Shown here one piece after another: positions 6,387 through 61,143 of a stretch of DNA of 64,000 bases. Source of the stretch: an uncultured Bacillota bacterium (GTDB taxonomy: Bacteria > Bacillota_I > Bacilli_A > RFN20 > CAG-449); contig CAJKZK010000001.1 of NCBI GenBank assembly GCA_905204225.1, positions 4,506-68,505 of the forward strand, read 5' to 3'. The position numbers were made by a program, and so were the translations under genes. Numbering within the stretch: position 1 is the first letter of the stretch; every line of letters begins with the position of its first letter. A model generated the notes under the pieces. It did not search any database, was not told where the DNA came from, and saw only the letters and a program-made list of their open reading frames with translations.

Positions 6387-7019
6387 ATGGCAAAAAGAAT
6401 TAGCATGGTAGTTCTTAACCAAAATGGTGAAGAATTAGAAAAGAAAGTTAATTTAAATGGCGATGTATTCGGAATTGAACCAAATACACAAGTCATGTTC
6501 GATGCAGTCCAAGTTTATCAAGCAAACAAAAGACAAGCGACTGCAAAAACAAAAACTAGAGCTGAAGTTCGCGGTGGTGGTAAAAAACCATGGAGACAAA
6601 AAGGCACTGGTAGAGCTAGAGCTGGATCAAGTCGTTCACCAATTTGGGTTGGTGGTGGAACAGTCTTCGGACCAATTGGAAACCAAAACTTCAAATTAAA
6701 AATGAATAAAAAATCACATGCTCTTGCATTAAAATCTGCTTTATCAATTAAAGCAAGTGAAAAAAATATTGTTTTAGTAGATAATTTAACTTCTGCAAAA
6801 ACAAAAGATGTTGTTAAAACATTAGAAGCTTTAAAAGTTGATTCTAAAGCATTAGTTGTTTTAGCAAAAGAAAATGAAGAATTTACTAGAGCAGCAAGAA
6901 ACGTTCCATTCGTTAAAGTTGTTCTTGCAAATAATGTAAGTGTCTATGATTTAATGAATTCAACAAAATTAGTTATGACAGTAGACGCTGCTAAAACAGT
7001 AGAAGGAGGACTTAAATAA
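6387..7019 (+). CDS. rplD: 50S ribosomal protein L4
   Basis: L4 sequence. Operon position. Confidence 0.95.
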   Translation: MAKRISMVVLNQNGEELEKKVNLNGDVFGIEPNTQVMFDAVQVYQANKRQATAKTKTRAEVRGGGKKPWRQKGTGRARAGSSRSPIWVGGGTVFGPIGNQNFKLKMNKKSHALALKSALSIKASEKNIVLVDNLTSAKTKDVVKTLEALKVDSKALVVLAKENEEFTRAARNVPFVKVVLANNVSVYDLMNSTKLVMTVDAAKTVEGGLK

Positions 7020-19792: not shown

Positions 19793-19818
19793 AAAACGCA
19801 CTTCGGTGCGTTTTTATT
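19793..19818 (+). terminator. Rho-independent terminator after rplQ (stem CGCAC/GTGCG, loop TTCG, T-run). This is copy 1 of a duplicated 35-nt element.
   Basis: aaaacgcacttcggtgcgtttttattatgcttaaa, read directly from the sequence. Confidence 0.8.
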
Positions 19819-19840
19819 ATGCTTAAAAATAAAACTTAAT

Positions 19841-19871
19841 TTGACAAACTAGACGGGGGGGGGGTTATAAT
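19841..19871 (+). promoter_or_regulatory. Sigma-A-type promoter with perfect TTGACA (19841-19846) and TATAAT (19866-19871) hexamers and a 19-bp spacer containing a G10 tract (19855-19864)
   Basis: Hexamers and homopolymer read directly. Lies about 25 bp upstream of the LytTR regulator start. Confidence 0.6.
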
Positions 19872-19896: not shown

Positions 19897-20610
19897 ATGA
19901 TTAGGATTGCTATAGTAGATGATGATACTACCGATGCAGAAACATTAGAAAATATTTTAAAAAAATATGAAAAAGAACATTCTAATGTTAATTTTTACAT
20001 TAAAAAATTTTCTACAGCAATTGCTTTTTTAGATAAATATCAACCATTTGATATAGTTTTTATGGATATTGAAATGCCAACAATGACAGGTATGGAAGCA
20101 TGTTATAAACTAAGAGAAATTGATCAAACAATAGCAATTATATTTGTCACAAATATGGCACAATTTGCAGTTGAAGGTTATATTGTTAGAGCATTTGATT
20201 TTGCAGTTAAGCCAATTAGTTATGGTAATTTGGCGTTAAAATTAGATAGAGTAATAGAGTATATTTCTCATTTTACTGGGAAAATAATACATATTAAAAC
20301 ACCTGAAAAAACATTACAAATTTCTTTAGAAGAAATTATTTATATTGATATTTATAATTATATTCTTACATATCATACTATTAATGATAAAATCGATGTA
20401 ACTACTACAAGCTTATTAGATATAGAAAAACAATTAATAAATTATGGATTTTTTAAAATCAATAGAAGTACAATAGTTAATCTAAAATATATAAAATCTG
20501 TTAAAGATACATTAGTTGATGTTAATGGTAATATTTTAACTTTATCAAGAAGAAGAAAAAAAGAATTTATGGAAAAATTAACAGAATATTTTGGAGAAAG
20601 CAATATTTAA
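19897..20610 (+). CDS. LytTR-family response regulator (receiver domain plus LytTR DNA-binding domain). Start taken at the ATG at 19897 (MIRIAIVDDD).
   Basis: Receiver aspartate context IVFMDIEMP. C-terminal LytTR-like region. RBS GAGG. Confidence 0.8.
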   Translation: MIRIAIVDDDTTDAETLENILKKYEKEHSNVNFYIKKFSTAIAFLDKYQPFDIVFMDIEMPTMTGMEACYKLREIDQTIAIIFVTNMAQFAVEGYIVRAFDFAVKPISYGNLALKLDRVIEYISHFTGKIIHIKTPEKTLQISLEEIIYIDIYNYILTYHTINDKIDVTTTSLLDIEKQLINYGFFKINRSTIVNLKYIKSVKDTLVDVNGNILTLSRRRKKEFMEKLTEYFGESNI

Positions 20611-20611
20611 T

Positions 20612-21964
20612 ATGTCAAATTTATTTTTCTTTAGACCCTTATTTATGTTAGAACTAATTTTAGCAGAAGCAATGTTTCTTTCAAAATTAAATATAAGAAC
20701 TAATTTTTTTATAAGATTGATTATTTCTTTGATTTTTTGCTTTGGTGTTTCTTTTATTTTACCAACAAATTTTGAAAATATTTATTATTATTCTTTTTTA
20801 TTTTTAATAATGTTTTTGGTTACTATTATAGCGAGTATGTTTTGTTTTAAAGCACCTCTTAAAAATATTTTATTTTGTGCAATTGCTGGATATACTATAC
20901 AACATATTGCTTCAGAATGTTATGAAATGTTTAATAATTATATGAACTTGATTATTGAAAAATCATTTAATTTTTATGATGCTGAAGGCACTATTGATAT
21001 AAATGCACAAAATTATTTCTTTTTATTAGTCTATTTTGCTATTTTTGTAATTATTTATGGCTTAGTATATTATTTAATTGTACCTAAAGTTGAAAAATAC
21101 AAAGTTTTACAAACTAACAATAAAGTAATATTATCTTTATCAATTTTTATTGTTTTAATTGATGTTATTATAGGAGCAATAATTTTATTTATTTTACCTG
21201 AAAAATATTTAGTGTCATTATCAAAATTAGTAAAATTTAGTGTATATTTTTTATTACATTTTTATAACATTTTATGTTGTGTTTTAGCAATAGTATTATT
21301 AATTGAGCTACCTCGCCGTAGTAGTGCGGAAAGTGATTTAATAACTGTTAATAAATTATATAAAATAGAACAATCACAATACAATTCAGTAAAAGAAAAT
21401 TTAGATTTAATTAATATTAAATGTCACGATTTAAAGCATCAAATGAGAAATATACTTAATAATAAACAAGTAGACACAAGTGAAATAAATAAAATAGAGC
21501 AAGCAATTGATATTTATGATTCTACATATAAAACAAAAAATGAAGCATTAAATATTGTATTAATGGAAAAAGGGTTAATATGTAAAAAAAATAAAATCGA
21601 ATTAACTTGTATAATAGATGCATCAAAATTATCTTTTATTAAAGATAATGATATTTATTCATTATTTGGCAATTTATTAGATAATGCGATTGAGGCAGTA
21701 AAAAATCTTGAACAAAGTAAAAGAGTAATTAGTTTGCAAATAAAGAATAGTGGAGAATTTTTAATTATAAAAACATATAATAATTATAATGGAAAAATCA
21801 ACTTTGTTAATAATTTACCAATTACAACAAAAGAAGATAAAGATTATCATGGATATGGATTAAAAAGCATTAATTATATTGTTAAATCTTATGATGGACA
21901 AATGAAAATAAAAACTAATAATCAAGTTTTTGATTTGACAATTCTTTTTCAAACAAACAAATAA
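20612..21964 (+). CDS. AgrC/HPK10-like membrane sensor histidine kinase (about 6 TM helices plus GHKL ATPase)
   Basis: N-terminal polytopic region. H-box KCHDLKHQ. C-terminal LLDNAIEA...HGYGL GHKL motifs. Translationally coupled to the upstream response regulator. Confidence 0.7.
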   Translation: MSNLFFFRPLFMLELILAEAMFLSKLNIRTNFFIRLIISLIFCFGVSFILPTNFENIYYYSFLFLIMFLVTIIASMFCFKAPLKNILFCAIAGYTIQHIASECYEMFNNYMNLIIEKSFNFYDAEGTIDINAQNYFFLLVYFAIFVIIYGLVYYLIVPKVEKYKVLQTNNKVILSLSIFIVLIDVIIGAIILFILPEKYLVSLSKLVKFSVYFLLHFYNILCCVLAIVLLIELPRRSSAESDLITVNKLYKIEQSQYNSVKENLDLINIKCHDLKHQMRNILNNKQVDTSEINKIEQAIDIYDSTYKTKNEALNIVLMEKGLICKKNKIELTCIIDASKLSFIKDNDIYSLFGNLLDNAIEAVKNLEQSKRVISLQIKNSGEFLIIKTYNNYNGKINFVNNLPITTKEDKDYHGYGLKSINYIVKSYDGQMKIKTNNQVFDLTILFQTNK

Positions 21965-21968
21965 ATAC

Positions 21969-21999
21969 CATTCACAAGATATAATAAATCATTCACAAG
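21969..21999 (+). promoter_or_regulatory. LytTR-box-like direct repeat: CATTCACAAG at 21969-21978 and 21990-21999, 21 bp between repeat starts, upstream of the 22088 lipoprotein gene
   Basis: Perfect 10-bp direct repeat read directly. This architecture is known for AgrA/ComE/PlnC operators. Confidence 0.5.
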
Positions 22000-22087: not shown

Positions 22088-23638
22088 ATGAAAATTAAAT
22101 CAAAACTTTTACTTTTGATTTCATTTATGTTGCCAATTTTTTCGTTAACAAGTTGTAATGAAACTCCTAAACATGTTTGTAATGAACCATGTCCAACATG
22201 TGGAGGTTGTCTTGATAATAAATGTCAAGAAGAAGCATGCTTAACAAAATGTAGTTGTGAAGTAATAGTTAAATCAGTGGATATAACAAGTATGCCGTTA
22301 AAAACAAATTATTATCCAGGAGAGATTTTTTCACCTGAAGGTTTAGTGGTTAAAGCTAATTTATCAAATGGAAAAACAAAAAAATATAGTTATAGAAAAT
22401 TTGATACTTGGACTCATAAGGACGAACCATTAACTGAAGATATTAAAAAAATCACTTTTACAATTCCGAAATATAATTTTGATTTTGATGTAGAGATTAA
22501 AGTTGAATTACCTAATGATTTATCTATTGTTGTTGATAAAAGTTTACTAAAAGAAACATATTTAACTACTGATATTATTGATTTTACAATAATAAATGTT
22601 AGAGCTAAAATTGGTGAAACAATGACTTTGCTAAAAGCTGATCAATGGAAATTATATGATGGTACAAATCTTATCGAAGATAAAACACAGGTAAGTCTAA
22701 GTGAAGGTGAACATTTAATAAAAATTGAATATGTACCAACTGTTGATTATAGTTTTACTTTAAAAATAAATGATCCAAATAATGTTATTTCTCCAGATCA
22801 TGTTGAAGCAGAAGATTGTGTTTATAATATAGACTCAAACGCACCATACACAATTAAAGAAAAAGTTGCAAATGCTCAATATCCTGATGAAAATGGTAAT
22901 TTATCAGATCAATTATTTAAAAAAATACCAAATGGAGCAAGTGGTACAGGAGCAGTTTCATCATTATCTGCATCACAAAATGGTAAGAATGTCTATTTTA
23001 AATTTAATATTAAAGTTCCTACAACTGGCGAATATGATTTATTAGCAAGAGTGCAAGGAACAGGTGAAAATCAAATTAAAAATAATTTTAAAGTTTCTAT
23101 TAATAATGGTGAAGAAATGATTTCAACAAGCACTGATACAATTCATGCTGGTAATCAAATTAAAAATCAATATGGTAAAGAAGGTTTTATTGGTTGGTAT
23201 AACATGTTTTGGTGGAATGTTGTCAATATTGGAACATATTCACTTACAAAAGGTGATAATGAAATAAAAATTACAATGCCAAAAGGATTAGGTGGAAATA
23301 TTGATTATTTTGAAGTTGTAAGTAAAGGTGAAATACATGAAACTCAATTATTTAGTATGAGAGAAGGAAGTAGAGTAAATTTATCAACAAATCCAATTTA
23401 TTTAAAATATGGTGAAAAATTAATAGATAAAGTAGCTACACCAATTGGTCACCCATGTAAATATACATTAATTTATTTAAGACTAGATGATGGTTGTGAA
23501 ATTCCTGTAACTGAAGATTTAATGAACGAAATTGATTATACCAAAACTGGTGAGCAAGAAGTAAATATAACATTTACTAAAAAAGAAAAAACATATAATG
23601 CTTCATTCAAAATAATAATTGAAGCTGAAGAAGAATAG
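22088..23638 (+). CDS. Surface lipoprotein with a Cys-rich N-terminal segment, a CBM6/CBM35-like carbohydrate-binding module and an Ig-like domain
   Basis: Lipobox LTSC. 10 Cys within about 35 aa after the signal peptide. EAEDCVY...GEYDLLARVQG...WWN...NIDYFEV jelly-roll motif shared with the next gene. Confidence 0.6.
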   Translation: MKIKSKLLLLISFMLPIFSLTSCNETPKHVCNEPCPTCGGCLDNKCQEEACLTKCSCEVIVKSVDITSMPLKTNYYPGEIFSPEGLVVKANLSNGKTKKYSYRKFDTWTHKDEPLTEDIKKITFTIPKYNFDFDVEIKVELPNDLSIVVDKSLLKETYLTTDIIDFTIINVRAKIGETMTLLKADQWKLYDGTNLIEDKTQVSLSEGEHLIKIEYVPTVDYSFTLKINDPNNVISPDHVEAEDCVYNIDSNAPYTIKEKVANAQYPDENGNLSDQLFKKIPNGASGTGAVSSLSASQNGKNVYFKFNIKVPTTGEYDLLARVQGTGENQIKNNFKVSINNGEEMISTSTDTIHAGNQIKNQYGKEGFIGWYNMFWWNVVNIGTYSLTKGDNEIKITMPKGLGGNIDYFEVVSKGEIHETQLFSMREGSRVNLSTNPIYLKYGEKLIDKVATPIGHPCKYTLIYLRLDDGCEIPVTEDLMNEIDYTKTGEQEVNITFTKKEKTYNASFKIIIEAEEE

Positions 23639-23648
23639 AGGAAAAAAT

Positions 23649-23780
23649 ATGGAAAAAAATATGTATTACACTCCAATTATAAGTGTAAAGAAAATTAATT
23701 TAGATGATGTAATTTGTGTCTCTTTTGATACAAAAGATGAAAATAACATTTATCAAAATGTTGATGTAACATTGGATTAA
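23649..23780 (+). CDS. Unannotated 43-aa ORF (MEKNMYYTPIISVKKINLDDVICVSFDTKDENNIYQNVDVTLD) with strong RBS AGAGGA, exactly filling the gap between the two CBM-protein genes
   Basis: ATG 8 nt after the RBS. Has a homologue at 33343-33480. No signal peptide. Confidence 0.4.
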   Translation: MEKNMYYTPIISVKKINLDDVICVSFDTKDENNIYQNVDVTLD

Positions 23781-23794
23781 GATGAGGTTATAAA

Positions 23795-26032
23795 ATGAAA
23801 AAATATAATAAATTAATGATATTATCATTATCAATGTTAATGATGATACCTTCAATAATTGTTAATAATGAAAACTCATTAATATGTTCTACAACTGATG
23901 TATTTAATGAAAAAGCACATATTGAAACAAGATTACTTAATCAATTAACTGATACTAATGAAACTGTAAAATGTTCTAATATGTATGTACAATATGGTTA
24001 TGATGGAACTAATTATTATTTAAGATACGCTACTGCAATTAAAGGTGATATTGAAACATTAAATTACAAAATGTTTATTAATGATGAAGAATATATTGCT
24101 GGAGAAAAAAATGCAGATGTTTTATACAAAAGCATATTATCTAATGGTACTAGACAATATTATAATGGTAACGAATTAACAACTACTCCAACTGAATATT
24201 TATGGACTTGCTATACTATAAAATTTGCTAGTGAAAAACATCAAGCAGATAATATAGCTGTTTATTTAAATATAAATAATGCAAACACTGTTTCTAAATC
24301 AACATCATTATTAGAAGAAATGAATGTTGAACCAGATCATATTGAAGCAGAAGATTGTGTTTATTTACTTGAAAATGATAATAAATACACTTTAAGTGAA
24401 GCTTCAGCAAATGCTCAATATCCTGATGAAAATGGTAATTTATCAGATCAATTATTTAAACAAATACCAAATGGAGCAAGTGGTAAAGGTGCAGTTTCTT
24501 CATTATCTAAAGGACAAAATGGTACAAAAGTATATTTTGAATTTACTGTTAACGCTCCAACTTCTGGAGAATATGAACTTTTAGCGAGAGTACAAGGAAC
24601 AGGTGAAAGCTCAATTAATGGATTATTTAATGTAAGTATTAATGGTGAAGAAGGAACTTTAAATACTTCAAATGATAAAATACTTAAAGGTAATCAATTA
24701 AAAGAACAATATAACACATCTAGTGATTATTTGAGTTGGTATAACATGTTTTGGTGGAATATGGTTAATATTGGAACATATTCTTTAAATAAAGGTGAAA
24801 ACACAATAAAAATCACATTGCCTAATGGATTAAGTGGTAATATTGATTATTTTGAAATTCAAAACAAAAATAGTGCAAAAACATCTAAAATTTTCAGTTT
24901 TAGAGAAGGATCAAGAAATGAATTATCAACAAATAATGGATTAACTTTAATTGAAAATGGATTATTATCTGATAAGTCTGGTACTCCAGCAAATCACCCT
25001 TGTAAATATACTTTAATGTATATAAGATTATTAGATGGTAGTGAACACCCAATTACTGAAGAAATGTTAACTAATTATAGTAATATTGATTATACAAAAG
25101 TTGACCAAGAACAAATTGTAACAATTAATTATAAAGAAAATACAGCGTCTTTTAAATTATTTATTGTTAAAGAAAATTATGATATTTATGAAGCAGAAGA
25201 TAATGTTTATAAGTATAAAAATGGAGAAGAAACCACAAATAAATATGCTTCAGTTAACAATTTAACTAATATAGAATATTATGAAAATGAAACATTAAAG
25301 TCAGAACAAACTAAAGATGGCTCAAGCAATAAAAAAGTTATAGCTTTAGGTGCAGGTGCTAGCAATCATGGTAAAGAAGTTTTCTTTAAATTTGAAGTAA
25401 ATGTACAAGAAACAAAAGATTATTATTTATTTTCAAGATTACAATCTTCAAATGAAAATGATTTGATTAATTGTTTTGAAATTAATATAAATGAAGAAAA
25501 AGATGAAAATGGAAAATTAAAATATTATAAAAATAATTATAGTCAAATTCCTTCATTATGTAATCAAACAACAACATTTAATAATGTATGGAATAATGCA
25601 ATGTGGTTTGGTATGGCAAATTTAGGAAAAATTCATTTAACTAAAGGAAACAATATAATTAGAGTTCGTATGCCAAATGGAATAAGTGCGAATATTGATT
25701 TCTTCCAAGTTAGAGAAACAGATTCATTTGGTGCAAATTTATTTACAGTAAGAGATGGATCACATACTAAACTTGATTCATTAACACTTGAAAAAAATCA
25801 AAAAATTACTGATATTATTTCAACTCCTAGTGCACACCCATATCAATATACATTAATGTATTTAAGATTACCAAATGGTAATGAGTATCCTGTTGTTACA
25901 AAACCTAGCGAAGGAACAAATGTAAATTATGTTGGTGTTTTAAGTGATATTGATTATACTTTATCTTCTCAAAAAGTCACCGTTACTAACGGAAATTACA
26001 AATTATCATTTACTTTAAATATAAATTTATAG
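23795..26032 (+). CDS. Secreted surface protein with two CBM6/CBM35-like modules and Ig-like domains (paralogue of the 22088 gene)
   Basis: Signal peptide. Two copies of the EAED...YxLxxRxQ...WxN...NIDxF module, the first closely similar to the 22088 protein. Confidence 0.6.
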   Translation: MKKYNKLMILSLSMLMMIPSIIVNNENSLICSTTDVFNEKAHIETRLLNQLTDTNETVKCSNMYVQYGYDGTNYYLRYATAIKGDIETLNYKMFINDEEYIAGEKNADVLYKSILSNGTRQYYNGNELTTTPTEYLWTCYTIKFASEKHQADNIAVYLNINNANTVSKSTSLLEEMNVEPDHIEAEDCVYLLENDNKYTLSEASANAQYPDENGNLSDQLFKQIPNGASGKGAVSSLSKGQNGTKVYFEFTVNAPTSGEYELLARVQGTGESSINGLFNVSINGEEGTLNTSNDKILKGNQLKEQYNTSSDYLSWYNMFWWNMVNIGTYSLNKGENTIKITLPNGLSGNIDYFEIQNKNSAKTSKIFSFREGSRNELSTNNGLTLIENGLLSDKSGTPANHPCKYTLMYIRLLDGSEHPITEEMLTNYSNIDYTKVDQEQIVTINYKENTASFKLFIVKENYDIYEAEDNVYKYKNGEETTNKYASVNNLTNIEYYENETLKSEQTKDGSSNKKVIALGAGASNHGKEVFFKFEVNVQETKDYYLFSRLQSSNENDLINCFEININEEKDENGKLKYYKNNYSQIPSLCNQTTTFNNVWNNAMWFGMANLGKIHLTKGNNIIRVRMPNGISANIDFFQVRETDSFGANLFTVRDGSHTKLDSLTLEKNQKITDIISTPSAHPYQYTLMYLRLPNGNEYPVVTKPSEGTNVNYVGVLSDIDYTLSSQKVTVTNGNYKLSFTLNINL

Positions 26033-26040
26033 GTTTAAAT

Positions 26041-29000
26041 ATGGAAAAATCACTTTTAAGAAAAGTAATTATTTTACCTTGCATGGCCGTAATATTAGCT
26101 GGCCTTGCAGTAGGTAATTACGAATGTTATATTCATGAAAATGAAATTACATCTCAACTTGTTCCTGCTAAAATAACTTATGATAATTCAAAATTATCAG
26201 AAGCACAAATGGCGGCAGGTAATGTTGTCAATCAAATAGCTCAAGAAGGTATGACATTAATGAAAAATGATGGAACATTACCTTTAGAAATTGATGAAGA
26301 CGATGAAGATGGTTATCCAATCAATTTATTTGGAATAGGAAGTACTGATGCCGAAAATGGCTTTTACTTATTTGGTGGTGGCTCTGGTTCTGTAACTTTA
26401 TATGATAAAGATAAAGTTACTTTACAACAAGGAATTGAACAAGCTGGCTTTGAAGTTAATACTTCCTTACTAAATTTCTTTAAAGAAGAAGGAGAAAATC
26501 CTAAAGAAAGTTGGTGGGAAAAAGAACAAAATATTCTTAAATCAGCAAAAGCATTTTCTGATACAGCTGTAGTAACTATATCAAGATTTACTGGTGAAAA
26601 TTGTGATGCTGATGAAAATACAACTGATCAAACTTCATATTCATTTAGTAAACCTTATCAAGCATCTTATAATGATAATGATTTAGATGGTAGAAATTTT
26701 TGTCAATTATCATTAAGAGAAGAAGCTATGTTAAAGTGGGTTAGCAATAATTTTGGTGAAGTAATAGTTTTAATCAATAGTGGAAACATGATGGAATTAG
26801 GTTTTTTAGACAATCCTAAAATTAATGCTATTTTGTATACTTCATATCCAGGAAAATCTGGAACAAAAGCAATAGGAGATATTCTAGCTGGAAAAGTAAA
26901 TCCAAGTGGACATTTAACTGATACTTTTGTTTATGATACCAAAAGTGATCCAACATGGGCTAATGTTATTGCTAAAAAAGATAATGGTACACAAATTCAC
27001 TATGTAGAAGATATTTATACTGGGTATAGATGGTATGAAACAGCTGACAAAGAAGGATATTTTAATTCTATTGGTAAAAACTATAATGAAGTTGTTTTTA
27101 GACCATTTGGATATGGATTATCTTATACAACATTTGAATGGAATTTTAAAAATATTTCTTTTAAAAATGGTGATACAATTATACCAGCAATTAATGGAGA
27201 TAATGTTAAAGATAAAGATACAAAAATTTTAATTCAGGTTGAAGTAAAAAATACTGGATTAGTCGCTGGTAAAGATGTTGTTCAATTATATTACACCGCA
27301 CCATACACAAAAGGTGGTATTGAAAAAGCGTATGTTAATTTAGTTGCATTTGAAAAAACAGAGATGCTATATCCACTTTCTCAATCAAGTGAAGACAAGC
27401 CGAATAGTCAAATTTTGTCTTTAGAATTTAGCTTGTATGATATGGCAAGTTATGATGCTTATGATAAAAATAAAAATAATTTTACAGGGTATGAACTTGA
27501 AAAAGGTGAATATCAATTAAAATTACAAAATAATGCTCATGAATTAAATAAGTGTGAAAATAGTACTATTAAAATAAATTTAACTAATGATTTAAAATGG
27601 GATAAAGATCCAAATACAAATGGAACTATAAAAAATAGATTTACAGGTTCGACAGCTGAAAACAATATTCCAATTGATGGTAATAATAATGGTGAAAAAA
27701 TAACATATTTGTCAAGAGCAGATTTTTTATCAACATTTCCAAAAACAACTACTCCAAATAGAACTTCAGGAGCAGATTCTACTAAAGATGGAACTTATGT
27801 TACAGATGAAGAATATTATAAAGATATTACAATGCCAACTTTAAATAGTACTGAAACAAATTTATTATTATATACTTTAGAAAATGGTGAAAAAGCGTCA
27901 ACTAATGATTTAAGTGGATATACAAACAATAAAATAATTCCTAACGAAGAATTAATTTTAAAATTAGGTGAAAACTATGATGCACCTGAATGGGAACAAT
28001 TATTGAATCAATTATCATATATAGAAATAGTTGATATTGTTGCTCGTTGTAGTTGTGGAACAGCTCCAGCTGAATCTATTGGAAAACCTAAAACAAGAGT
28101 TTTTGATGGACCTCAAGGAATTAACAATTCAACACTTTCTCCAGAACAATTAGCTGATGTAACTGCATTTCCAGCTGAAACTTTAGTAGGTATGACTTTT
28201 AACAAAGAACTTGCTAGATTAGAAGGTGCGGCAATGGCAACTGAAGCTTCATTAACAGGAACAATAGGAATATATGCTCCAGCAGTTGATTTGCATCGTC
28301 ATGCTTATAATGGTAGAAATTATGAACAATATAGTGAAGATCCTTATTTATGTGGAATTATGGGTGGTAAAATGGCAACAGGTGCTATTACACATGGTTG
28401 TCAAGTCTCTATAAAACATTTTGTTTGTTCTCAACCTGGAAGAAATCCTAGAGACTATAATACATGGTTAACAGAACAAAATTTAAGAGAAAATTATCTA
28501 AAACCGTTTGAAATTGCTATTAAAGAAAGTAAAGCAAATTTCTTGATGACATCATTTAATAACATAGGCGGAGTAAGATGTGCTTATTCTTATCAATTGT
28601 TAAATGGAGTATTAAGAGAAGAATGGGGATTCAAAGGATCAATTATTACGGATTATGATGTTAATAGTGCATCAAGAACTACTGCAAATTTAATTAGATC
28701 TGGTAATGATTTAAGATTCCAAGGAAGTGTTGCTAATAGAGCAGAACTTGATAAAAACAATGTAGTTGATGTTTATTTAGCTAGACAATCTGTAAAAAGA
28801 GACTTATGGTCATTTTGTAATACATATTATAGAACTAAAAATTATGATCCAAATTACACGTCAACAAATGTTATTGTCACTCAACCATTTGTATGGTGGA
28901 TAATGGTAGTAATAATGATAGATGTGATAATTATAGGTGGAATTGGTGTAGGAATTTTCTTCTTATTTAAGCCAAAGAAAAAAGCACTAGTAAATAATAT

Positions 29001-29193
29001 TGAGACAGATAGTTCTCAAGAAAAATCTGAACATAAATTTTTATACAAAAAGAAAGAAAATCTTTCTTCAACTAGCGCTCAAAATGTTGTAATTGATAAT
29101 AACCAAGAAAAATTTTCTATATCAAAAAAAGATTATGAAGAACTCATTGATTTAATTGATAAATTACAAGATAAATTAAAAAAATTAAAATAA
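26041..29193 (+). CDS. Glycoside hydrolase family 3 (beta-glucosidase/xylosidase-like) with permuted domain order and N- and C-terminal TM anchors
   Basis: GH3 C-domain-like region first (MKNDGTLPL, VNPSGHL, FGYGLSYTTF), then GH3 N-domain motifs (KHF, GFKGSIITDYD with catalytic Asp). One TM helix near each terminus. Confidence 0.65.
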   Translation: MEKSLLRKVIILPCMAVILAGLAVGNYECYIHENEITSQLVPAKITYDNSKLSEAQMAAGNVVNQIAQEGMTLMKNDGTLPLEIDEDDEDGYPINLFGIGSTDAENGFYLFGGGSGSVTLYDKDKVTLQQGIEQAGFEVNTSLLNFFKEEGENPKESWWEKEQNILKSAKAFSDTAVVTISRFTGENCDADENTTDQTSYSFSKPYQASYNDNDLDGRNFCQLSLREEAMLKWVSNNFGEVIVLINSGNMMELGFLDNPKINAILYTSYPGKSGTKAIGDILAGKVNPSGHLTDTFVYDTKSDPTWANVIAKKDNGTQIHYVEDIYTGYRWYETADKEGYFNSIGKNYNEVVFRPFGYGLSYTTFEWNFKNISFKNGDTIIPAINGDNVKDKDTKILIQVEVKNTGLVAGKDVVQLYYTAPYTKGGIEKAYVNLVAFEKTEMLYPLSQSSEDKPNSQILSLEFSLYDMASYDAYDKNKNNFTGYELEKGEYQLKLQNNAHELNKCENSTIKINLTNDLKWDKDPNTNGTIKNRFTGSTAENNIPIDGNNNGEKITYLSRADFLSTFPKTTTPNRTSGADSTKDGTYVTDEEYYKDITMPTLNSTETNLLLYTLENGEKASTNDLSGYTNNKIIPNEELILKLGENYDAPEWEQLLNQLSYIEIVDIVARCSCGTAPAESIGKPKTRVFDGPQGINNSTLSPEQLADVTAFPAETLVGMTFNKELARLEGAAMATEASLTGTIGIYAPAVDLHRHAYNGRNYEQYSEDPYLCGIMGGKMATGAITHGCQVSIKHFVCSQPGRNPRDYNTWLTEQNLRENYLKPFEIAIKESKANFLMTSFNNIGGVRCAYSYQLLNGVLREEWGFKGSIITDYDVNSASRTTANLIRSGNDLRFQGSVANRAELDKNNVVDVYLARQSVKRDLWSFCNTYYRTKNYDPNYTSTNVIVTQPFVWWIMVVIMIDVIIIGGIGVGIFFLFKPKKKALVNNIETDSSQEKSEHKFLYKKKENLSSTSAQNVVIDNNQEKFSISKKDYEELIDLIDKLQDKLKKLK

Positions 29194-29198
29194 TTGTA

Positions 29199-29225
29199 TA
29201 AAACGCACTTTGGTGCGTTTTTATT
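29199..29225 (+). terminator. Rho-independent terminator after the GH3 gene. This is copy 2 of the duplicated 35-nt element (one loop base differs from the copy at 19793).
   Basis: aaaacgcactttggtgcgtttttattatgcttaaa, read directly from the sequence. Confidence 0.8.
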
Positions 29226-29365
29226 ATGCTTAAACTAAATATTATAATTTAGAAAAACAAACAAAAGAAATAAAATATGAAATTGTTAAAACTAGTAGTT
29301 ATATTGCAACTGCTGAAGAAATAATTCTTCAACCATTAAATTAATTCAAAAAATTATAAAATTTA

Positions 29366-30518: not shown

Positions 30519-32483
30519 ATGAATAAAATTAATAAAGAACAAATACTTATTTCTAGACATTATATTATGTCAAATGGACAAGAAGACAACAATAGAGATA
30601 AATATTATGCTTATTTATTAAATAAATTTGGCATCGAAATTGTCAATCCTAAATTTTTAAATAAAGAAGTTGTTCAACAATTAAAAAAATATTTAAAAAT
30701 TAATATACCTAATTCATTTTATAAAAATCCTCAAGATTTAAAATATTTTTCTTGTGAAGAATTATATTTAGAACAGCTTATTTCTTATATCAATATTGAT
30801 TTGATTGAAGGAAATCATAATAAAAATACAAATTTTAATCGTATAGAATTATTTAATAAAGTATTACCTAAATATGAGAATGGTAAAGAAATTAAAATAA
30901 GAAAATATAATATAATTCTAGAAAATGAAATTAATAAAATATTGAATGATATATTTGATGCATATTGTAATTATTCTCGTCCTTTTTCTATTGAAGAAGC
31001 AAATGAATTTTTATATTTATATTCATTAGGATTTTATCATAATCAAGATATTAAATGTAAAGATAATATTTTTTATTTATTAGATAAAGATATAAATTTT
31101 GCAAAATTACTTGATAGAAAAGATGTTGTAAAATTCTCTATTCTTAAATTTGGTAATGCAGATTTTAATAAAATGAACAAATCACAAAAAAACACATTGA
31201 AATTAATTAAAAATATGATTCCTTTGGTTAAAAAAACATCATTAAGTAAAAAGCAAGCTAAATTTTTTAATAAATTATGTAAAGAATGTAATTTAAAAAT
31301 TAGTGATAACAATGATAATTCACCATATAAAGCTGCAATAAAAGAAATAAAAAATGGAAATATTATTTCTGCTAGTAAAATATTTTTAGATAATGGATCT
31401 TTATTTGCTCGTAATTTTAGATTTTTATTATCAAGAGCTAATAATGAAGAAAAAAATATTTTAATAAATATGCTTCCTAATGACAATCCTATTTTGCTAT
31501 ATCAAATATTAACAACTATTTTAAATGATAAAGACAAAAGAATATTTACATTTAAAAATAATAATTTAGTGAAATGTCATATTGAAACTGATTATGAAGA
31601 AAAATATAGAAAATCAAAATTAGATTATGAAACATGTGAAACACTATCTAATATTATTAAAAATAAAATTGATTCATATTATTTGTCTTTACCAAAATTA
31701 GGAAAAATATATATTTCTGAAAAATTTAAAAAAATTGCTTTGCCTGTTAATAATTCGTGTTCAGGAAGAGGTTTAGATGTGCTTCCAACTGGTTCAAGAA
31801 TTAAAATTAATGGTAATTATATAAGAACTTTTTGTTATTGGAAAAATGTATTTGATATTGATACATCGGCATTATTTATAAAAGATGATTTTAATAAAAA
31901 TAATGATTATGTTGAACTTTCTTGGAGGAATTATAATACTCTTCCTTTAGGAAAATCTGCTTTATCTTCTGGTGATTGTAGAGATGAAAATGGAGCAGAA
32001 TATCAAGATTTTAAAATAGATGAATTGTTAGAATTAGGTTATAGATATGTTATTTATACTCTTAATGGCTATGGTGGAAAACTTAATGAAGGTGACATTG
32101 TATGTGGTTATCAAAATAAGAATAACTTAAATACAAGTGCATGGGATCCTAAAAATATTGAATTTAAAATTAATGTTATAAGTAATTCATGTGCTTATAT
32201 AGGCTTTGCAATAGATTTAAAAACAAAAGAAATTATTGTTTTAAACCTTAATTCAAGTGGAAATAATCAAGTAGTAAATAAAAAACAATTATTATTAATA
32301 GAAAGATATTTAAACGAAAATTATTTAAATTATAGTATGTATGATTTACTTAAATGTAGAGGAGAAATTACTTCAAAAGAAGAAGCAAATATCATATTTG
32401 ATGAAGACTATATACCTTTAGATAATCAAAAAACAATTAAATCTTATGAAATGGAAAAACTTGTTGCATTGATTAATGAATAA
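30519..32483 (+). CDS. Large cytoplasmic protein with a C-terminal TerD-like (Ca-binding, tellurite-resistance-family) domain. The N-terminal 400 aa are uncharacterised.
   Basis: C-terminal FCYWKN...DIDTSALFIKDD...SGDCRDENGAEYQDFKIDEL, matching the TerD signature GlgWD/DlDasa/GDnxxGeg.dDE. Confidence 0.45.
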   Translation: MNKINKEQILISRHYIMSNGQEDNNRDKYYAYLLNKFGIEIVNPKFLNKEVVQQLKKYLKINIPNSFYKNPQDLKYFSCEELYLEQLISYINIDLIEGNHNKNTNFNRIELFNKVLPKYENGKEIKIRKYNIILENEINKILNDIFDAYCNYSRPFSIEEANEFLYLYSLGFYHNQDIKCKDNIFYLLDKDINFAKLLDRKDVVKFSILKFGNADFNKMNKSQKNTLKLIKNMIPLVKKTSLSKKQAKFFNKLCKECNLKISDNNDNSPYKAAIKEIKNGNIISASKIFLDNGSLFARNFRFLLSRANNEEKNILINMLPNDNPILLYQILTTILNDKDKRIFTFKNNNLVKCHIETDYEEKYRKSKLDYETCETLSNIIKNKIDSYYLSLPKLGKIYISEKFKKIALPVNNSCSGRGLDVLPTGSRIKINGNYIRTFCYWKNVFDIDTSALFIKDDFNKNNDYVELSWRNYNTLPLGKSALSSGDCRDENGAEYQDFKIDELLELGYRYVIYTLNGYGGKLNEGDIVCGYQNKNNLNTSAWDPKNIEFKINVISNSCAYIGFAIDLKTKEIIVLNLNSSGNNQVVNKKQLLLIERYLNENYLNYSMYDLLKCRGEITSKEEANIIFDEDYIPLDNQKTIKSYEMEKLVALINE

Positions 32484-33191: not shown

Positions 33192-33342
33192 AACCCCTTT
33201 CTTACAAATAATAAAAAATATTATTGACAAATAATATAACTTTTTATAAGATGAAATATCAAAAGATAGCATTTTTATGCTATTTTTTAAACTAAATTAT
33301 TAAAAAGAAAGGAGATACGTGTAATACGTAAAAATAAGAATT

Positions 33343-33480
33343 ATGAAAAAAGAATATATTATACCAACAATATCTTTTATTAATGTGAATTATGAAGATG
33401 TTATATTAGCAAGCAATTTAAAAGCAAATGAAACCCTTGATTGGAACACAAGTGTTAATGGTGAAACATGGGGTAAATAA
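33343..33480 (+). CDS. Unannotated 45-aa ORF (MKKEYIIPTISFINVNYEDVILASNLKANETLDWNTSVNGETWGK), homologous to the 43-aa ORF at 23649 and ending 1 nt before the LRR protein gene
   Basis: Shared Y-x-P-x-IS-x-x-x-N-x-[DE]-DVI motif. Weak RBS. Confidence 0.3.
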   Translation: MKKEYIIPTISFINVNYEDVILASNLKANETLDWNTSVNGETWGK

Positions 33481-33481
33481 A

Positions 33482-34648
33482 ATGAAAAAAATTAAAAAAT
33501 TATTTATTCTTCCATTATTAGCGTTATCTCTATTTAATGTTAATAATACTCAATTAACTAATTCTCAATTTCAATTAGAAGAAACAACTAATGATGAAAA
33601 TATCGTTGGAATTAGAAAAGAAATTACATCTACTTCAAATAATGATGTTAAAGTATCTAATATTCTAAAAGTACAAGCATCAAATGTAGAAAATGGTAAA
33701 AGATCATTAAGATTTGTTGCAGGCATATCAAGCCTTTCATTAAAAGCACATTTCCACAGAGAAGAAATCAAAGTAAATAATGAAGTAATAATGAAAGCAA
33801 ATGATATTGAAGTCACTTGTGCTTATTCAAAAATATTAAATGGAACTGTTGAACAAACAGCAAATACAGTATTTGAAAATAATGAGTATAAATATTTTGT
33901 TGCATATACATTAAAAGATATTCCAGAAGAATATTGGTCAACTGTAATTAATGTTTCTCTTATTTTAGAAGATGGTAATAAAGCCGCTACTAAAAAAGCT
34001 AATGTAGATGCGTTTGATGAATCAAAAACAAATGAAGAATGTTTTTCGTTTAGTAAATTGAATGATGGTAACTATGCCATTGCCGTGAAAAATGATTATA
34101 AAGCAACAATAAAGGAATTAAATATCCCATCATATTATTATGAAACGATTGATACAAACAATGAATTTGTAAAAACAAAAAATATGATAACGACTATTGG
34201 ATATAAATCAAATAGTAGTGTTGAAATTATAGGCTTTAGTGGTTGTACAAATTTAACTTACATTAATATTCCAAGTACAATTACACAAATTAAAGATTCG
34301 TCTTTTACAAATTGTAGTTCTTTAACAACTGTTATTTTTAATTCTGGTGTTAATATTGGACATTGGGTATTTGTTTCATGTAATAAAATTGAAAAACTAA
34401 TTTTACCAAAAGGTACAGTTCTTGGAATGCAACCATTTGGTGATCACCATGAAAATCTATCTGTATATTATGAAGGTGAAACAATACCTACAAGCTGGAA
34501 TCAATTCTGGAGAGAGGCGTCAAAATTTAAATTTTATTTATTTTCATCAACTCAACCTACATCAAATCCAACTAATGCAGATGGATATTGGCATTATGTA
34601 AATAATGAACCAGTTAAATGGGAAATTAGCACTGTAGTGAGCAAATAA
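33482..34648 (+). CDS. Secreted protein with BspA-type leucine-rich repeats. Start taken at the ATG at 33482 (MKKIKKLFILP).
   Basis: Signal peptide. C-terminal repeats of the form GCTNLTYINIPSTITQIKDSSFTNCSSLTTVIF (LRR_5-like). Confidence 0.5.
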   Translation: MKKIKKLFILPLLALSLFNVNNTQLTNSQFQLEETTNDENIVGIRKEITSTSNNDVKVSNILKVQASNVENGKRSLRFVAGISSLSLKAHFHREEIKVNNEVIMKANDIEVTCAYSKILNGTVEQTANTVFENNEYKYFVAYTLKDIPEEYWSTVINVSLILEDGNKAATKKANVDAFDESKTNEECFSFSKLNDGNYAIAVKNDYKATIKELNIPSYYYETIDTNNEFVKTKNMITTIGYKSNSSVEIIGFSGCTNLTYINIPSTITQIKDSSFTNCSSLTTVIFNSGVNIGHWVFVSCNKIEKLILPKGTVLGMQPFGDHHENLSVYYEGETIPTSWNQFWREASKFKFYLFSSTQPTSNPTNADGYWHYVNNEPVKWEISTVVSK

Positions 34649-59685: not shown

Positions 59686-60051
59686 TTATTTATCTAATTT
59701 TGCACCACATGATTGACAGGTATCAACATTATTTGTGTTTGTACATCCACATTCAGGACATACTTTATTTAATTTGTTTGTTGCAACTGAATTATCATTA
59801 GCGATTGAACCTTTAGTAGCTACTAAAGAACAACCAATCCATAATGACCAAATTCCAAATGTTAATAATCCTAAACCGATAATAATTAAAATCGCACCAA
59901 AGACGCTAAATAAGACGATAGGAAGGATTTCTGTGTTGTTTGATATTCCTAATACTAACATAAAAATACCGCCTATAATGGCTCCTAAAGCGAGAATTAA
60001 AATAAAGATGCTAAGAGTGATAGAAATTGTTTTTCCTTTTGTTGGTTTCAT
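59686..60051 (-). CDS. Small membrane protein (3 TM helices) with a C-terminal CPECG...CQSCG zinc ribbon
   Basis: Hydrophobic segments and CxxC-x10-CxxC. Confidence 0.5.
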   Translation of the reverse strand: MKPTKGKTISITLSIFILILALGAIIGGIFMLVLGISNNTEILPIVLFSVFGAILIIIGLGLLTFGIWSLWIGCSLVATKGSIANDNSVATNKLNKVCPECGCTNTNNVDTCQSCGAKLDK

Positions 60052-60063
60052 AAATAATCCTTT

Positions 60064-61143
60064 CTAACTATTGTAATAGTTTATAAATAAAATTATGACA
60101 ACTATAATAAATATTAAAATAATACCTGCAACAATTGATACTTTAATAGGTGATATTGGTAAACCTTTACCAATTTTTCCTGTTTGCCCATTCATAATTG
60201 TACAATAATTTTTATTACGATAAACAAAATTAACATAATAAAGAGGTAAGAGTTGATAATTATATTTTTCATTATCATAATCAGTATCAATATTTAAATA
60301 TTGAACACCATCATAAGTATATTGACTAAGAATTCCAGATCTAATAGAAGATTTAACAATATCATTAGCTTGATCATAGCATTTATCAAGAGAATCATTA
60401 TAATGTTCGACATAATAACCTCTTAAGAAATTATTATCAAATAAACAACTCTCTGCTAAATTATAAGGAAGTACACTATTAAATTGATCAGTATCAATTT
60501 GAGTGCAAGATTCAACTAAAATATTTTTATAATCATAATCATAAGTACCACTAATATTAAATGTCTTAACTTCTGTTCGAGTTCTACCTTTACTATCAGT
60601 AACAGTCTTTGTTCTAGTTAATACACCATAATAACTAGAAGAAGTATCTCCATCAAATGAGAAAGAAGGAATATAAATACCTTTAATACATTCTGCTTTA
60701 AAAGTTTTTTTTAATTTTGAAGGAACAAAGAATTTCTTTTTAATACCTTCTTTAAAAATTTTACATGCTTCTTCTTTATCAAATTTAAATGGAATGACAC
60801 AATCGGGTTTTAAACCAGGTATATTATTTATTTCAATAACATATTTACTTCCACAATATGGACATTCTTGAGTTAAAGCCAAACCATTTACAACAACAGT
60901 TGCACCACATGTTTGACATTTTACCATTTTATTTTCTTCTGCCCAGTTATCAGTATCAAAAGATTGTTTTGATAAATTTAAATCATGTTTTTCATTGCTA
61001 ACAGTGATTGGAAAATTAAATATAGATCCACAAGAATTGCATTTTAATCCTTTGGATTTGGGATCAAAGAATAGCTCTGATCCACAATTAGCACATTTAG
61101 AAGAAGAAGATGTTAATTCTTTTTGTTCAGTATCTAAATCCAT
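60064..61143 (-). CDS. YdjG-like protein with two N-terminal zinc ribbons and a C-terminal TM anchor. Start taken at M7, giving a TAATG overlap with the upstream gene.
   Basis: CANCG...CNSCG and CQTCG...CPYCG. C-terminal hydrophobic helix. RBS GGAGA. Confidence 0.5.
   Translation of the reverse strand: MDLDTEQKELTSSSSKCANCGSELFFDPKSKGLKCNSCGSIFNFPITVSNEKHDLNLSKQSFDTDNWAEENKMVKCQTCGATVVVNGLALTQECPYCGSKYVIEINNIPGLKPDCVIPFKFDKEEACKIFKEGIKKKFFVPSKLKKTFKAECIKGIYIPSFSFDGDTSSSYYGVLTRTKTVTDSKGRTRTEVKTFNISGTYDYDYKNILVESCTQIDTDQFNSVLPYNLAESCLFDNNFLRGYYVEHYNDSLDKCYDQANDIVKSSIRSGILSQYTYDGVQYLNIDTDYDNEKYNYQLLPLYYVNFVYRNKNYCTIMNGQTGKIGKGLPISPIKVSIVAGIILIFIIVVIILFINYYNS

Follow-up and report, generated by a model that had tools for sequence, protein, structure and literature searches.

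Results

A 43-codon gene between two genes for exported proteins

The analysis concerned a 64,000-nucleotide (nt) stretch of DNA from an uncultured Bacillota bacterium (Bacilli_A; RFN20; CAG-449; GenBank assembly GCA_905204225.1, contig CAJKZK010000001.1, positions 4,506 to 68,505 of the forward strand), referred to here as the window, and a small peptide gene that lies within it. The window has a G+C content of 27.5% and carries the rpsM-rpoA-rplQ / rplM-rpsI region of a gut Firmicute with low G+C. A 43-codon open reading frame (ORF) is present on the forward strand at 23649..23780 (ATG at 23649, TAA at 23778-23780) and encodes the acidic peptide MEKNMYYTPIISVKKINLDDVICVSFDTKDENNIYQNVDVTLD. 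It takes up 132 nt of the 156-nt spacer between the stop codon of a 516-amino-acid (aa) lipoprotein gene (23636-23638) and the ATG of a 745-aa secreted-protein gene (23795). Its Shine-Dalgarno (SD) sequence, AGAGGA (23637..23642, forward strand), overlaps the TAG of the upstream gene and is separated from the ATG by 6 nt. The original prediction, made from the sequence of the window, had reported an unannotated ORF with this SD in the gap. The ORF and the SD are present, but the spacing is 6 nt rather than 8 nt, and the absence of annotation was a feature of that reader's 60-aa ORF track only; in public assemblies, homologues with 81-98% identity are called as 43-aa genes. Gene calls are found in hundreds of gut metagenome assemblies, and the index of the assembly collection has the exact 43-aa sequence in 672 blocks.

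The N-terminal part of the peptide carries the strand-type motif Y6-x-x-P9-x-I11...D19-D20-V-I-C-V-S25 and is followed by an acidic tail that ends in VTLD. The sole Cys of the peptide, C23, precedes the tail. Relative to an 81%-identical copy (locus L001), the gene has accumulated eight synonymous and eight non-synonymous changes, with no non-synonymous change in residues 6-23. The ratio of non-synonymous to synonymous polymorphism (pN/pS), pooled over 19 independent pairs of family genes, was 0.27. The reading frame is thus kept when synonymous and non-synonymous changes are compared, as had been suggested as a check of the ORF, and the pattern is that of a real gene under purifying selection.

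A second gene of this type had been predicted at 33343 and was confirmed. It lies at 33343..33480 on the forward strand and encodes a 45-aa paralogous peptide, MKKEYIIPTISFINVNYEDVILASNLKANETLDWNTSVNGETWGK, which ends in ETWGK, is approximately 30% identical to the 43-aa peptide and has the motif in common with it. A hidden Markov model (HMM) of the peptide family, with both window peptides in its training set, gave exactly two matches among the window ORFs of at least 20 aa (E values of 1e-14 and 4e-25), with the next best match at 0.83.

The peptide gene and the downstream gene form a two-gene module

The gene directly downstream of the 43-aa peptide gene (23795..26032, forward strand) encodes the 745-aa secreted protein, which is comprised of a Sec signal peptide, an L-x-[EC]-S-T-T-D motif, an N-terminal domain at residues ~28-199 (hereafter N-dom) and two repeats resembling carbohydrate-binding modules (CBM-like). 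The gene downstream of the paralogue (33482..34648, forward strand) starts 1 nt past the peptide stop codon and encodes a 388-aa secreted protein with a signal peptide, an LEETT motif, an N-dom and a C-terminal LRR_5 (BspA-type) region. The N-dom is approximately 170 aa long, starts immediately behind an L-x-E-[ST]-T-x-D motif that itself adjoins the signal peptide, and is encoded at 23876-24391 and 33608-34120 in the window. Its signature is S-x-M-Y-x-Q ... Y-L-R-F-A-T-A-x-K-G ... Y-K-x-I ... Y-Y-W-x-C-Y-T-I-K-F. The C-terminal domains that follow it vary, and are CBM-like or LRR_5 in the low-GC lineage. The N-dom has no Pfam match, and the sequence matches to PDB entries were weak, Ig-V-like and non-significant (E ~0.2). 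An AlphaFold model from two sequences was all-beta but unreliable, with a predicted local distance difference test (pLDDT) score of 47, and a Foldseek search with this model returned nothing significant. The possibility that the peptide is a detached strand of the N-dom was rejected, as a profile-profile comparison was negative.

Among diverse family members, the peptide gene lies 0-75 nt 5' of, or overlaps, a gene whose product carries a signal peptide of Sec type, and at all loci collected ahead of the reverse test below the N-dom HMM matched solely genes directly 3' of a peptide gene. As a reverse test against ascertainment bias, metagenome loci were fetched with the pattern Y[YL]W[TA]C[YF]TI of the N-dom and no other criterion, which gave 75 loci (L031-L105). 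In 71 of these, a search with the peptide HMM gave a single family peptide ORF, which shares the strand of the N-dom gene and has its end ~90-170 nt 5' of the N-dom match, just ahead of the signal peptide. The four misses each had less than 210 nt of upstream sequence, and all 71 informative loci were therefore positive. A module was defined as an HMM-identified family peptide, on the same strand and ending no more than 75 nt ahead of a gene that encodes a Sec signal peptide followed by an N-dom; both window copies fall within this definition, as do the 71 informative loci. Several modules can occur on one contig or in one metagenome-assembled genome (MAG), for example three on ERZ1106952 NODE-13. 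As all of the informative loci fetched through the N-dom carry a family peptide upstream, the peptide and the N-dom protein are shown to be an obligate, co-duplicating two-gene module. The 43-aa peptide is tied to the downstream N-dom protein and not primarily to the adjoining Agr-like two-component system (TCS) described below.

A fortuitous or non-functional small ORF in the intergenic spacer would be in keeping with the shortness of the gene, its AT-rich sequence and the lack of a known function. This explanation is effectively refuted by conservation, given the SD, the pN/pS of 0.27, a family of ~100 clusters, the synteny at 71/71 loci and the restriction of HMM matches in the window to the two peptides.

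The peptide family

The suggested search for the motif in related genomes recovered a large conserved family. A profile search of 1.84 billion representatives gave 23 proteins with an E value of 0.001 or lower, and a search of a 5.8-billion-protein index gave 95 proteins with an E value of 1 or lower, nearly all of 37-65 aa. Two repeat proteins among the profile-search matches (P0031 and P0043) were set aside as low-complexity artefacts. The family comprises approximately 100 clusters at 90% identity. SD-like purine-rich stretches (GGAG/GAGG/AAGG-type) are present within ~15 nt 5' of the start codon in most family genes, as judged by eye and unscored.

Family statistics were taken from 66 unique peptides linked to N-dom genes. 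These are 37-48 aa long, with a mean net charge of -4.8 and the consensus K-x-Y-x-x-P-x-[IL]-x7-[ED]-D-[VI]-[IL]-L-x-S, followed by an acidic tail of 14-22 aa with an internal D-[IFW] motif. The Tyr and Pro are conserved in at least 80% of them, and Ile, Leu or Val stands two residues past the Pro in most. The C-terminus is conserved as [DN]-E-[ET]-[LFM] (mostly DEEL, NEEL, NETL, DEEM, DEEF or DDEF), and the last residue is Leu, Phe, Met or Ile in 56 of the 66. Across the family the head is conserved and the tail is more variable. The tail is not hypervariable; the D-[IFW] motif and the [DN]-E-[ET]-[LFM] end are kept even between paralogues on the same contig. A Cys is found in just seven of the 66 peptides, and the Cys of the window peptide is not a family feature.

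No segment of signal-peptide quality, whether as a signal peptide or a transmembrane (TM) segment, was detected in the 66 peptides, in which the maximum Kyte-Doolittle score over 15 residues averages 1.25. An AlphaFold2 model built on a 38-sequence alignment showed no secondary structure, with a pLDDT of ~80 for residues 1-20 and 50-60 beyond. On its own the peptide is thus predicted to be an extended or disordered chain. The model would fit a segment that acquires its structure on binding, without being evidence for such folding. The sole match of the peptide profile among PDB sequences, to the start of the MpAFP BIg repeats, was non-significant (E 0.68). No Pfam or NCBIfam model matched the family even at E values of up to 10, save for a sub-threshold tryglysin match of the paralogue, and nothing relevant to the motif or the module was found in the searchable literature. 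By these comparisons, the family is previously undescribed and matches no curated family.

The junction between the two genes

The SD of the downstream N-dom gene in the window (GAGG, 23784..23787, forward strand) lies 3 nt past the peptide stop codon, with 14 nt between the stop and the ATG. Among 48 distinct junctions, 40 have a gap of 9-14 nt, and 26 have TAG as the peptide stop codon, typically as TAG-GAGG, in which the stop codon is part of the SD of the next gene. As the peptide stop abuts or overlaps the SD of its partner, the peptide and the N-dom protein are probably made from one mRNA in coupled amounts. No RNA structure that would sequester the downstream start was found, and the RNA folded no better than shuffled sequences (z-scores of -0.48 and +0.80), which places the conservation at the level of the protein. 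An RNA element instead of a protein is ruled out by the accumulating synonymous changes together with this folding result. A frameshift or readthrough fusion with the downstream or upstream gene was also rejected; the ATG that follows the peptide stop is in a different relative frame at different loci (gaps of 1, 2, 9-14 and 17 nt), so that no consistent fusion would result.

The compact junction bears on an alternative explanation, in which the peptide gene is a cis-acting regulatory leader ORF. Its translation, pausing or termination would control initiation at the N-dom gene, the SD of which would lie under the ribosome at the peptide stop, and the conserved residues would reflect contacts between the nascent chain and the ribosome. 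The invariant position 9-14 nt upstream, the fusion of the stop to the next SD, the presence of the same head motif whatever the downstream domain, and the conserved, acidic extreme C-terminus (DEEL, DEEM, DDEF) all favour such a role. The acidic cluster is reminiscent of the arrest cluster of MifM, and in MifM, SecM and TnaC a conserved small ORF likewise lies directly 5' of the regulated gene, with an acidic cluster or conserved residues at the extreme C-terminus. Unlike these systems, the family has no membrane-targeting segment and no sequestering RNA structure, and the downstream gene does not encode a component of the secretion machinery; nor is there a hydrophobic segment for generating a pulling force, as in SecM, MifM and VemP. 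The downstream gene has its own strong SD, with spacing that is ordinary for a compact operon, and by the folding results above its start is not sequestered in an RNA structure. The Ruminococcaceae members, whose downstream partners are LRR_5-dockerin proteins without a recognisable N-dom, have gaps of 51-74 nt, and at one locus (L123) the peptide gene follows a secreted-protein gene instead of preceding one. A cis-acting leader was accordingly considered improbable.

At the paralogue at 33343, the sole good SD (AAAGGAG) lies ~38 nt 5' of the ATG (33297-33345; compare 6968-7003 in L005 and 6961-7003 in L014). A short hairpin occupies the interval between this SD and the ATG, and its pairing is kept while its sequence changes, from TACGT..ACGTA in the window to AGTATATT..AATATACT in L014. 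The hairpin may be an SD-bridging or regulatory element.

Resemblance of the peptide head to RiPP leaders

Lasso peptide leaders carry a YxxPxL motif at positions -17 to -12, which binds the recognition element (RRE) of systems for ribosomally synthesised peptides with post-translational modifications (RiPPs) (PMC10368454). The head of the family peptides, Y-x-x-P-x-[IL]...EDVIL-x-S, resembles this motif. Two distant relatives lie in RiPP-type surroundings. P0104 (locus L120, 778-3321) has a Cys-rich tail (...SSDCSSDCVFDC...) and lies 92 nt 5' of a homologue of radical-SAM/SPASM RiPP maturases, which is followed by a TupA-like ATP-grasp protein. P0096 (locus L124, 1432-2561) is a Gly/Trp-rich precursor located 7 nt 5' of an HprK/ScmC-like protein and a lasso-type PqqD chaperone. 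These are apparently two undescribed RiPP-type clusters with the same leader motif. With an HMM built from N-dom-linked peptides alone, P0104 scored 28 bits and P0096 24 bits; the highest-scoring background ORF in the window reached 6.7 bits. Both relatives were first retrieved at E ~0.04-0.3 from 5.8 billion sequences, and are likely to be homologous to the family. Since relatives with the same motif adjoin a radical-SAM/SPASM enzyme or a PqqD RRE, the family head resembles a RiPP leader. The cluster at L120 adjoins a resolvase gene. Family-like peptides with poly-Glu/Asp tails were also observed between spoIIE and a SCIFF peptide with its radical-SAM maturase in two different Clostridia MAGs (L025 and L028, 5519-5632).

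Like RRE-dependent leaders, the family peptides are small, have a hydrophobic strand behind the N-terminal Y-x-x-P-x-[IL] motif and a head that is extended and unstructured, and occur in several copies per contig or MAG. They differ in that a Thr at position -2 and a Gly1 core appear to be lacking, in having no conserved Cys, and in their conserved C-terminal tip and obligate link to a secreted protein. Pfam annotation covered the window ORFs from 19.8 kb on, with a few exceptions (e.g., 59686-60067). For other loci, it covered L001-L015 (precomputed), the eight largest neighbour clusters of 52 N-dom loci, and part of the neighbours in L016-L030. Within this scope, no RRE, maturase, leader protease or peptide exporter was found in the N-dom-linked neighbourhoods or the window, which again sets the N-dom-linked peptides apart from RRE-dependent systems.

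Several specific precursor classes were considered and rejected. The motif of lasso precursors is present, but the B1 (PqqD) and B2 (protease) proteins and the C cyclase are absent from the window ORFs and the N-dom-linked loci scanned, PqqD being found only next to the distant relative P0096. Lasso precursors have Thr (rarely Ile or Val) at position -2, and a core that begins with Gly, Ala, Ser or Cys and has Asp or Glu at core position 7-9. With the Tyr set at -17, position -2 is Val21, and Leu or Cys would be the first core residue, an atypical beginning; in so acidic a tail, an acidic residue at positions 7-9 of the core is expected by chance. The WGK ending of the paralogue recalls tryglysin-type radical-SAM RiPPs, in which a radical-SAM WgkB and a PqqD-type WgkC are encoded alongside, but the NF050036 model scored 12.4 bits against a cutoff of 34, in the N-terminus only, and no radical-SAM protein was present among the scanned window ORFs. 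A double-glycine leader of the ComC/bacteriocin type does not apply, as [AVTS]-S rather than G-G precedes the variable part and no C39 or ABC exporter is found in the modules.

A RiPP-like precursor was among the roles first proposed for the 43-aa peptide. In such a reading, residues 1-25 would be a leader for an RRE enzyme, or for a leader protease or exporter, encoded elsewhere, and the acidic C-terminal part of 15-20 aa would be released, possibly modified, and act outside the cell, for example on the N-dom. This maturation in trans draws support from the conserved head with its more variable tail, the likeness of Y-x-x-P-x-[IL] to the RRE-binding lasso motif, and the scores of P0104 and P0096, which stand in precursor position well above the background. 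The multiple copies per genome are also typical of trans-matured precursor families, such as prochlorosin-type systems. Against it, no maturase, RRE, protease or transporter lies beside the peptide in the annotated N-dom-linked loci, the tail keeps its D-[IFW] and [DN]-E-[ET]-[LFM] motifs, family-wide Cys and a GG motif are lacking, and Thr(-2) appears to be lacking as well. The homology of the relatives in RiPP context, given the E values and the size of the collection they were drawn from, is probable rather than certain. The proposal therefore stands in part, through the motif at L120 and L124, and we regard maturation in trans as the main rival explanation for the N-dom-linked peptides, though a rather unlikely one.

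The adjacent two-component system

A response regulator gene (Response_reg and LytTR domains by Pfam; 19897..20610) and a histidine kinase gene of the AgrC/ComD class (HATPase_c_5 by Pfam; 20612..21964) lie on the forward strand upstream of the operon; the multi-TM N-terminal part of the kinase is assumed from its class. A putative LytTR-type operator follows at 21970..21999 (forward strand) and consists of a perfect 9-bp direct repeat, ATTCACAAG, present twice with a 12-bp spacer. The repeat is located ~90 nt 5' of the first ATG of the operon, has the geometry of a LytTR operator and is unique in the window. Perfect period-21 repeats were also identified between the kinase gene and the module in L001 (8256-8288), L058 and L061, and in the last two they lie directly 5' of the peptide gene. 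An imperfect pair in L007 (~6890-6918) was seen by eye and was unreported by the 7-of-9 scan. The order regulator, kinase, peptide recurs in five peptide subfamilies. Within 3 kb of the module, an HATPase_c_5 kinase was present in 10 of 52 loci and a LytTR regulator in seven of 52. Neither a TCS nor a LytTR box accompanies the paralogue at 33343. It is plausible that the adjacent LytTR system drives the window operon through the 21970-21999 repeat.

The promoter of the regulator and kinase genes (19841..19871, forward strand) is comprised of TTGACA, a spacer with a tract of ten G residues (19855-19864) and TATAAT. Among ten metagenome contigs with a 100%-identical regulator, the G tract was 7, 9, 9, 10, 10, 10, 11 and 12 nt long in eight and interrupted in two. 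The spacer was 16-21 nt where the flanking TATAAT was intact; one contig has TAATAAT. Allowing that assemblers err at homopolymers, this suggests a slipped-strand, phase-variable promoter for the TCS, and hence for the peptide operon.

The original prediction had considered that the peptide might be the cognate signal of this TCS. As an autoinducer, it would be exported, sensed by the kinase, and induce its own operon via the LytTR box. The kinase does belong to a peptide-sensing class and has no agrBD, period-21 repeats precede the peptide operon here and in L001 and the peptide gene itself in L058 and L061 (with the imperfect pair in L007), and the gene order is shared by five subfamilies. 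The likeness to AgrD and to HPK10/LytTR pheromone precursors (ComC, BlpC, PlnA) extends to a small peptide gene with or behind an AgrC/AgrA-class TCS, LytTR repeats upstream and an acidic C-terminal part. In contrast to those precursors, the family has no AgrB, amphipathic N-terminal helix, conserved Cys, GG leader or C39 transporter, and mostly no TCS nearby. AgrD in particular was rejected, as there was no adjacent AgrB in the scanned window ORFs, no match to an AgrD model and no helix in the AlphaFold model; the 19.8-29.2 kb cassette holds only the regulator, the kinase, the 516-aa lipoprotein, the peptide, the 745-aa protein and a GH3 protein. Features of an AgrD-type ring were not found in the 66 peptides, in which Cys is rare, the tail has no conserved Pro, and an invariant Ser is followed by 14-22 residues.

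The evidence on linkage weighs most heavily here. A TCS lies within 3 kb of only ~10 of 52 modules, the second copy in the window has neither TCS nor box, and the peptide tracks the N-dom, its universal partner (71/71), and not the kinase. No export or processing signal and no conserved Cys is present, and paralogues on the same contig have near-identical C-termini, which would make for poor signal specificity. The strict N-dom linkage and the conserved C-terminus thus argue against a specificity-bearing pheromone, and the box is equally explained by a TCS that regulates a surface-glycan operon. The cognate-signal proposal fits the genomic evidence poorly, and we consider it very improbable. 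Its premises fared better; a LytTR/HPK10 TCS does adjoin the operon, AgrB and AgrD are absent from the cassette and control of the operon through the LytTR-type box is plausible, but most modules have no TCS. Similarly, the single Cys followed by an acidic tail is present in the window peptide, while a reading as an autoinducing peptide fails on the 7/66 frequency of Cys and the lack of an amphipathic helix.

Neighbouring genes and the cassette

The first gene of the operon (22088..23638, forward strand) encodes the 516-aa lipoprotein, with an LTSC lipobox-like sequence (by eye), a Cys-rich segment, a Big_3 domain and a CBM-like domain. The Cys-rich segment, at residues ~29-58, has the form HxCxxxCPxCGxCxDxxCxxxxCxxKCxC and stands ahead of each 'IEAE..' CBM-like repeat. 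The same segment occurs four times in a 1867-aa GH3 fusion protein of L021 (198-5801). The last gene of the operon (26041..29193, forward strand) encodes a 1050-aa circularly permuted GH3 protein, in which GH3_C precedes the GH3 N-domain. By neighbour clustering, a permuted GH3 lies within 3 kb of the module in 36 of 52 loci; permuted GH3 loci of note are the window, L020, L026, L029, L019 and L021. In the relatives from L020, L026 and L029, hydrophobic stretches that look TM-like by eye are present at either end, together with a C-terminal tail that is rich in Lys.

A terminator and tail (AAAACGCACTT[C/T]GGTGCGTTTTTATTATGCTTAAA) is duplicated at 19793-19829 and 29200-29236, on the two sides of the 9.4-kb TCS/peptide/GH3 cassette, which is inserted between rplQ and rplM. 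In L006, rplQ is followed by rplM with no cassette, and in L001 the cassette lies in another genomic context. On the basis of these two arrangements, the cassette behaves as a mobile or insertable unit. Further downstream, a 654-aa protein (30519-32483) has no signal peptide (by eye) and no Pfam match, and the order 654-aa protein, Amidase_3, peptide, LRR_5 is kept in L005 and L006.

Discussion

The reading that we favour, tentatively and stopping short of calling it probable, is that the peptide is a co-produced accessory or escort partner of the downstream N-dom pre-protein, with quorum signalling not its main role. The first ~25 residues, which are conserved, would be an extended, strand-forming recognition segment that is unstructured alone and would probably dock by adding a beta-strand to a partner. 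A second contact would come from the acidic tail with its hydrophobic [DN]-E-[ET]-[LFM] tip. By binding the pre-protein at its signal peptide, the L-x-E-S-T-x-D segment or the N-dom, the peptide would keep it export-competent or control its folding or display. In the window, the operon for the 516-aa lipoprotein, the peptide, the N-dom protein and GH3 would be switched on by the adjacent LytTR regulator via the 21970-21999 repeat, and the length of the poly-G tract in the regulator's own promoter would phase-vary the switch.

Substrate-specific partners encoded beside their cargo are known from other secretion systems, and include Lap1/Lap2 of LXG toxins (type VII secretion), type III secretion chaperones and redox-enzyme maturation proteins of the twin-arginine (Tat) pathway such as NapD; these are folded proteins of 80-200 aa. 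The likeness lies in a small acidic protein encoded beside, and here predicted to be co-expressed with, its exported cargo, with one copy per cargo paralogue. The differences are that the cargo here has an ordinary Sec signal peptide, and that the candidate partner is a 40-aa peptide, disordered alone.

Several points weigh against an escort role. The model is built on genomic pairing, from which the interaction is a candidate. No earlier example of a micropeptide that escorts particular Sec substrates is known to us. A peptide with no export signal and a secreted partner imply that contact would be transient and cytoplasmic, or that the peptide leaves by another route. The N-terminal motif stays the same although the downstream proteins differ greatly, from N-dom proteins to the LRR_5-dockerin proteins of Ruminococcaceae and even SCIFF loci, and it is common to peptides in RiPP-precursor positions as well. 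A head kept ahead of unrelated proteins would recognise a common machine and not the N-dom itself, which keeps the trans-maturation and ribosome models alive. The N-dom model, at a pLDDT of 47, is too poor to seek a docking groove.

A broader proposition can be drawn from the favoured escort reading, and we hold it as more doubtful. The modules may represent a new class of surface-protein module in uncultured gut Bacilli and Clostridia, in which a whole paralogous family of Sec-secreted, glycan-binding N-dom proteins would strictly need a RiPP-leader-like acidic micropeptide, in stoichiometric amounts, in order to be exported, folded or displayed, with some modules under a LytTR switch that has a length-variable poly-G promoter.

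The family presents a leader-bearing small peptide in a new and strictly conserved genomic partnership, with a likeness to RRE-type leaders that is confined to the head, and so brings leader motifs of the RiPP type into genomic surroundings that are not those of a RiPP. Either trans-matured peptides have been overlooked in large number, or a leader-like recognition strand has been recruited for another job, and either outcome would be useful to those who mine genomes for small ORFs and RiPPs. An orphan Agr-like TCS beside a small ORF is not automatically a pheromone circuit. Human gut metagenomes commonly contain uncultured Bacilli of this kind, and the pairing of a conserved micropeptide with a secreted protein offers a concrete way into the question of how their glycan-facing surface is built or regulated.

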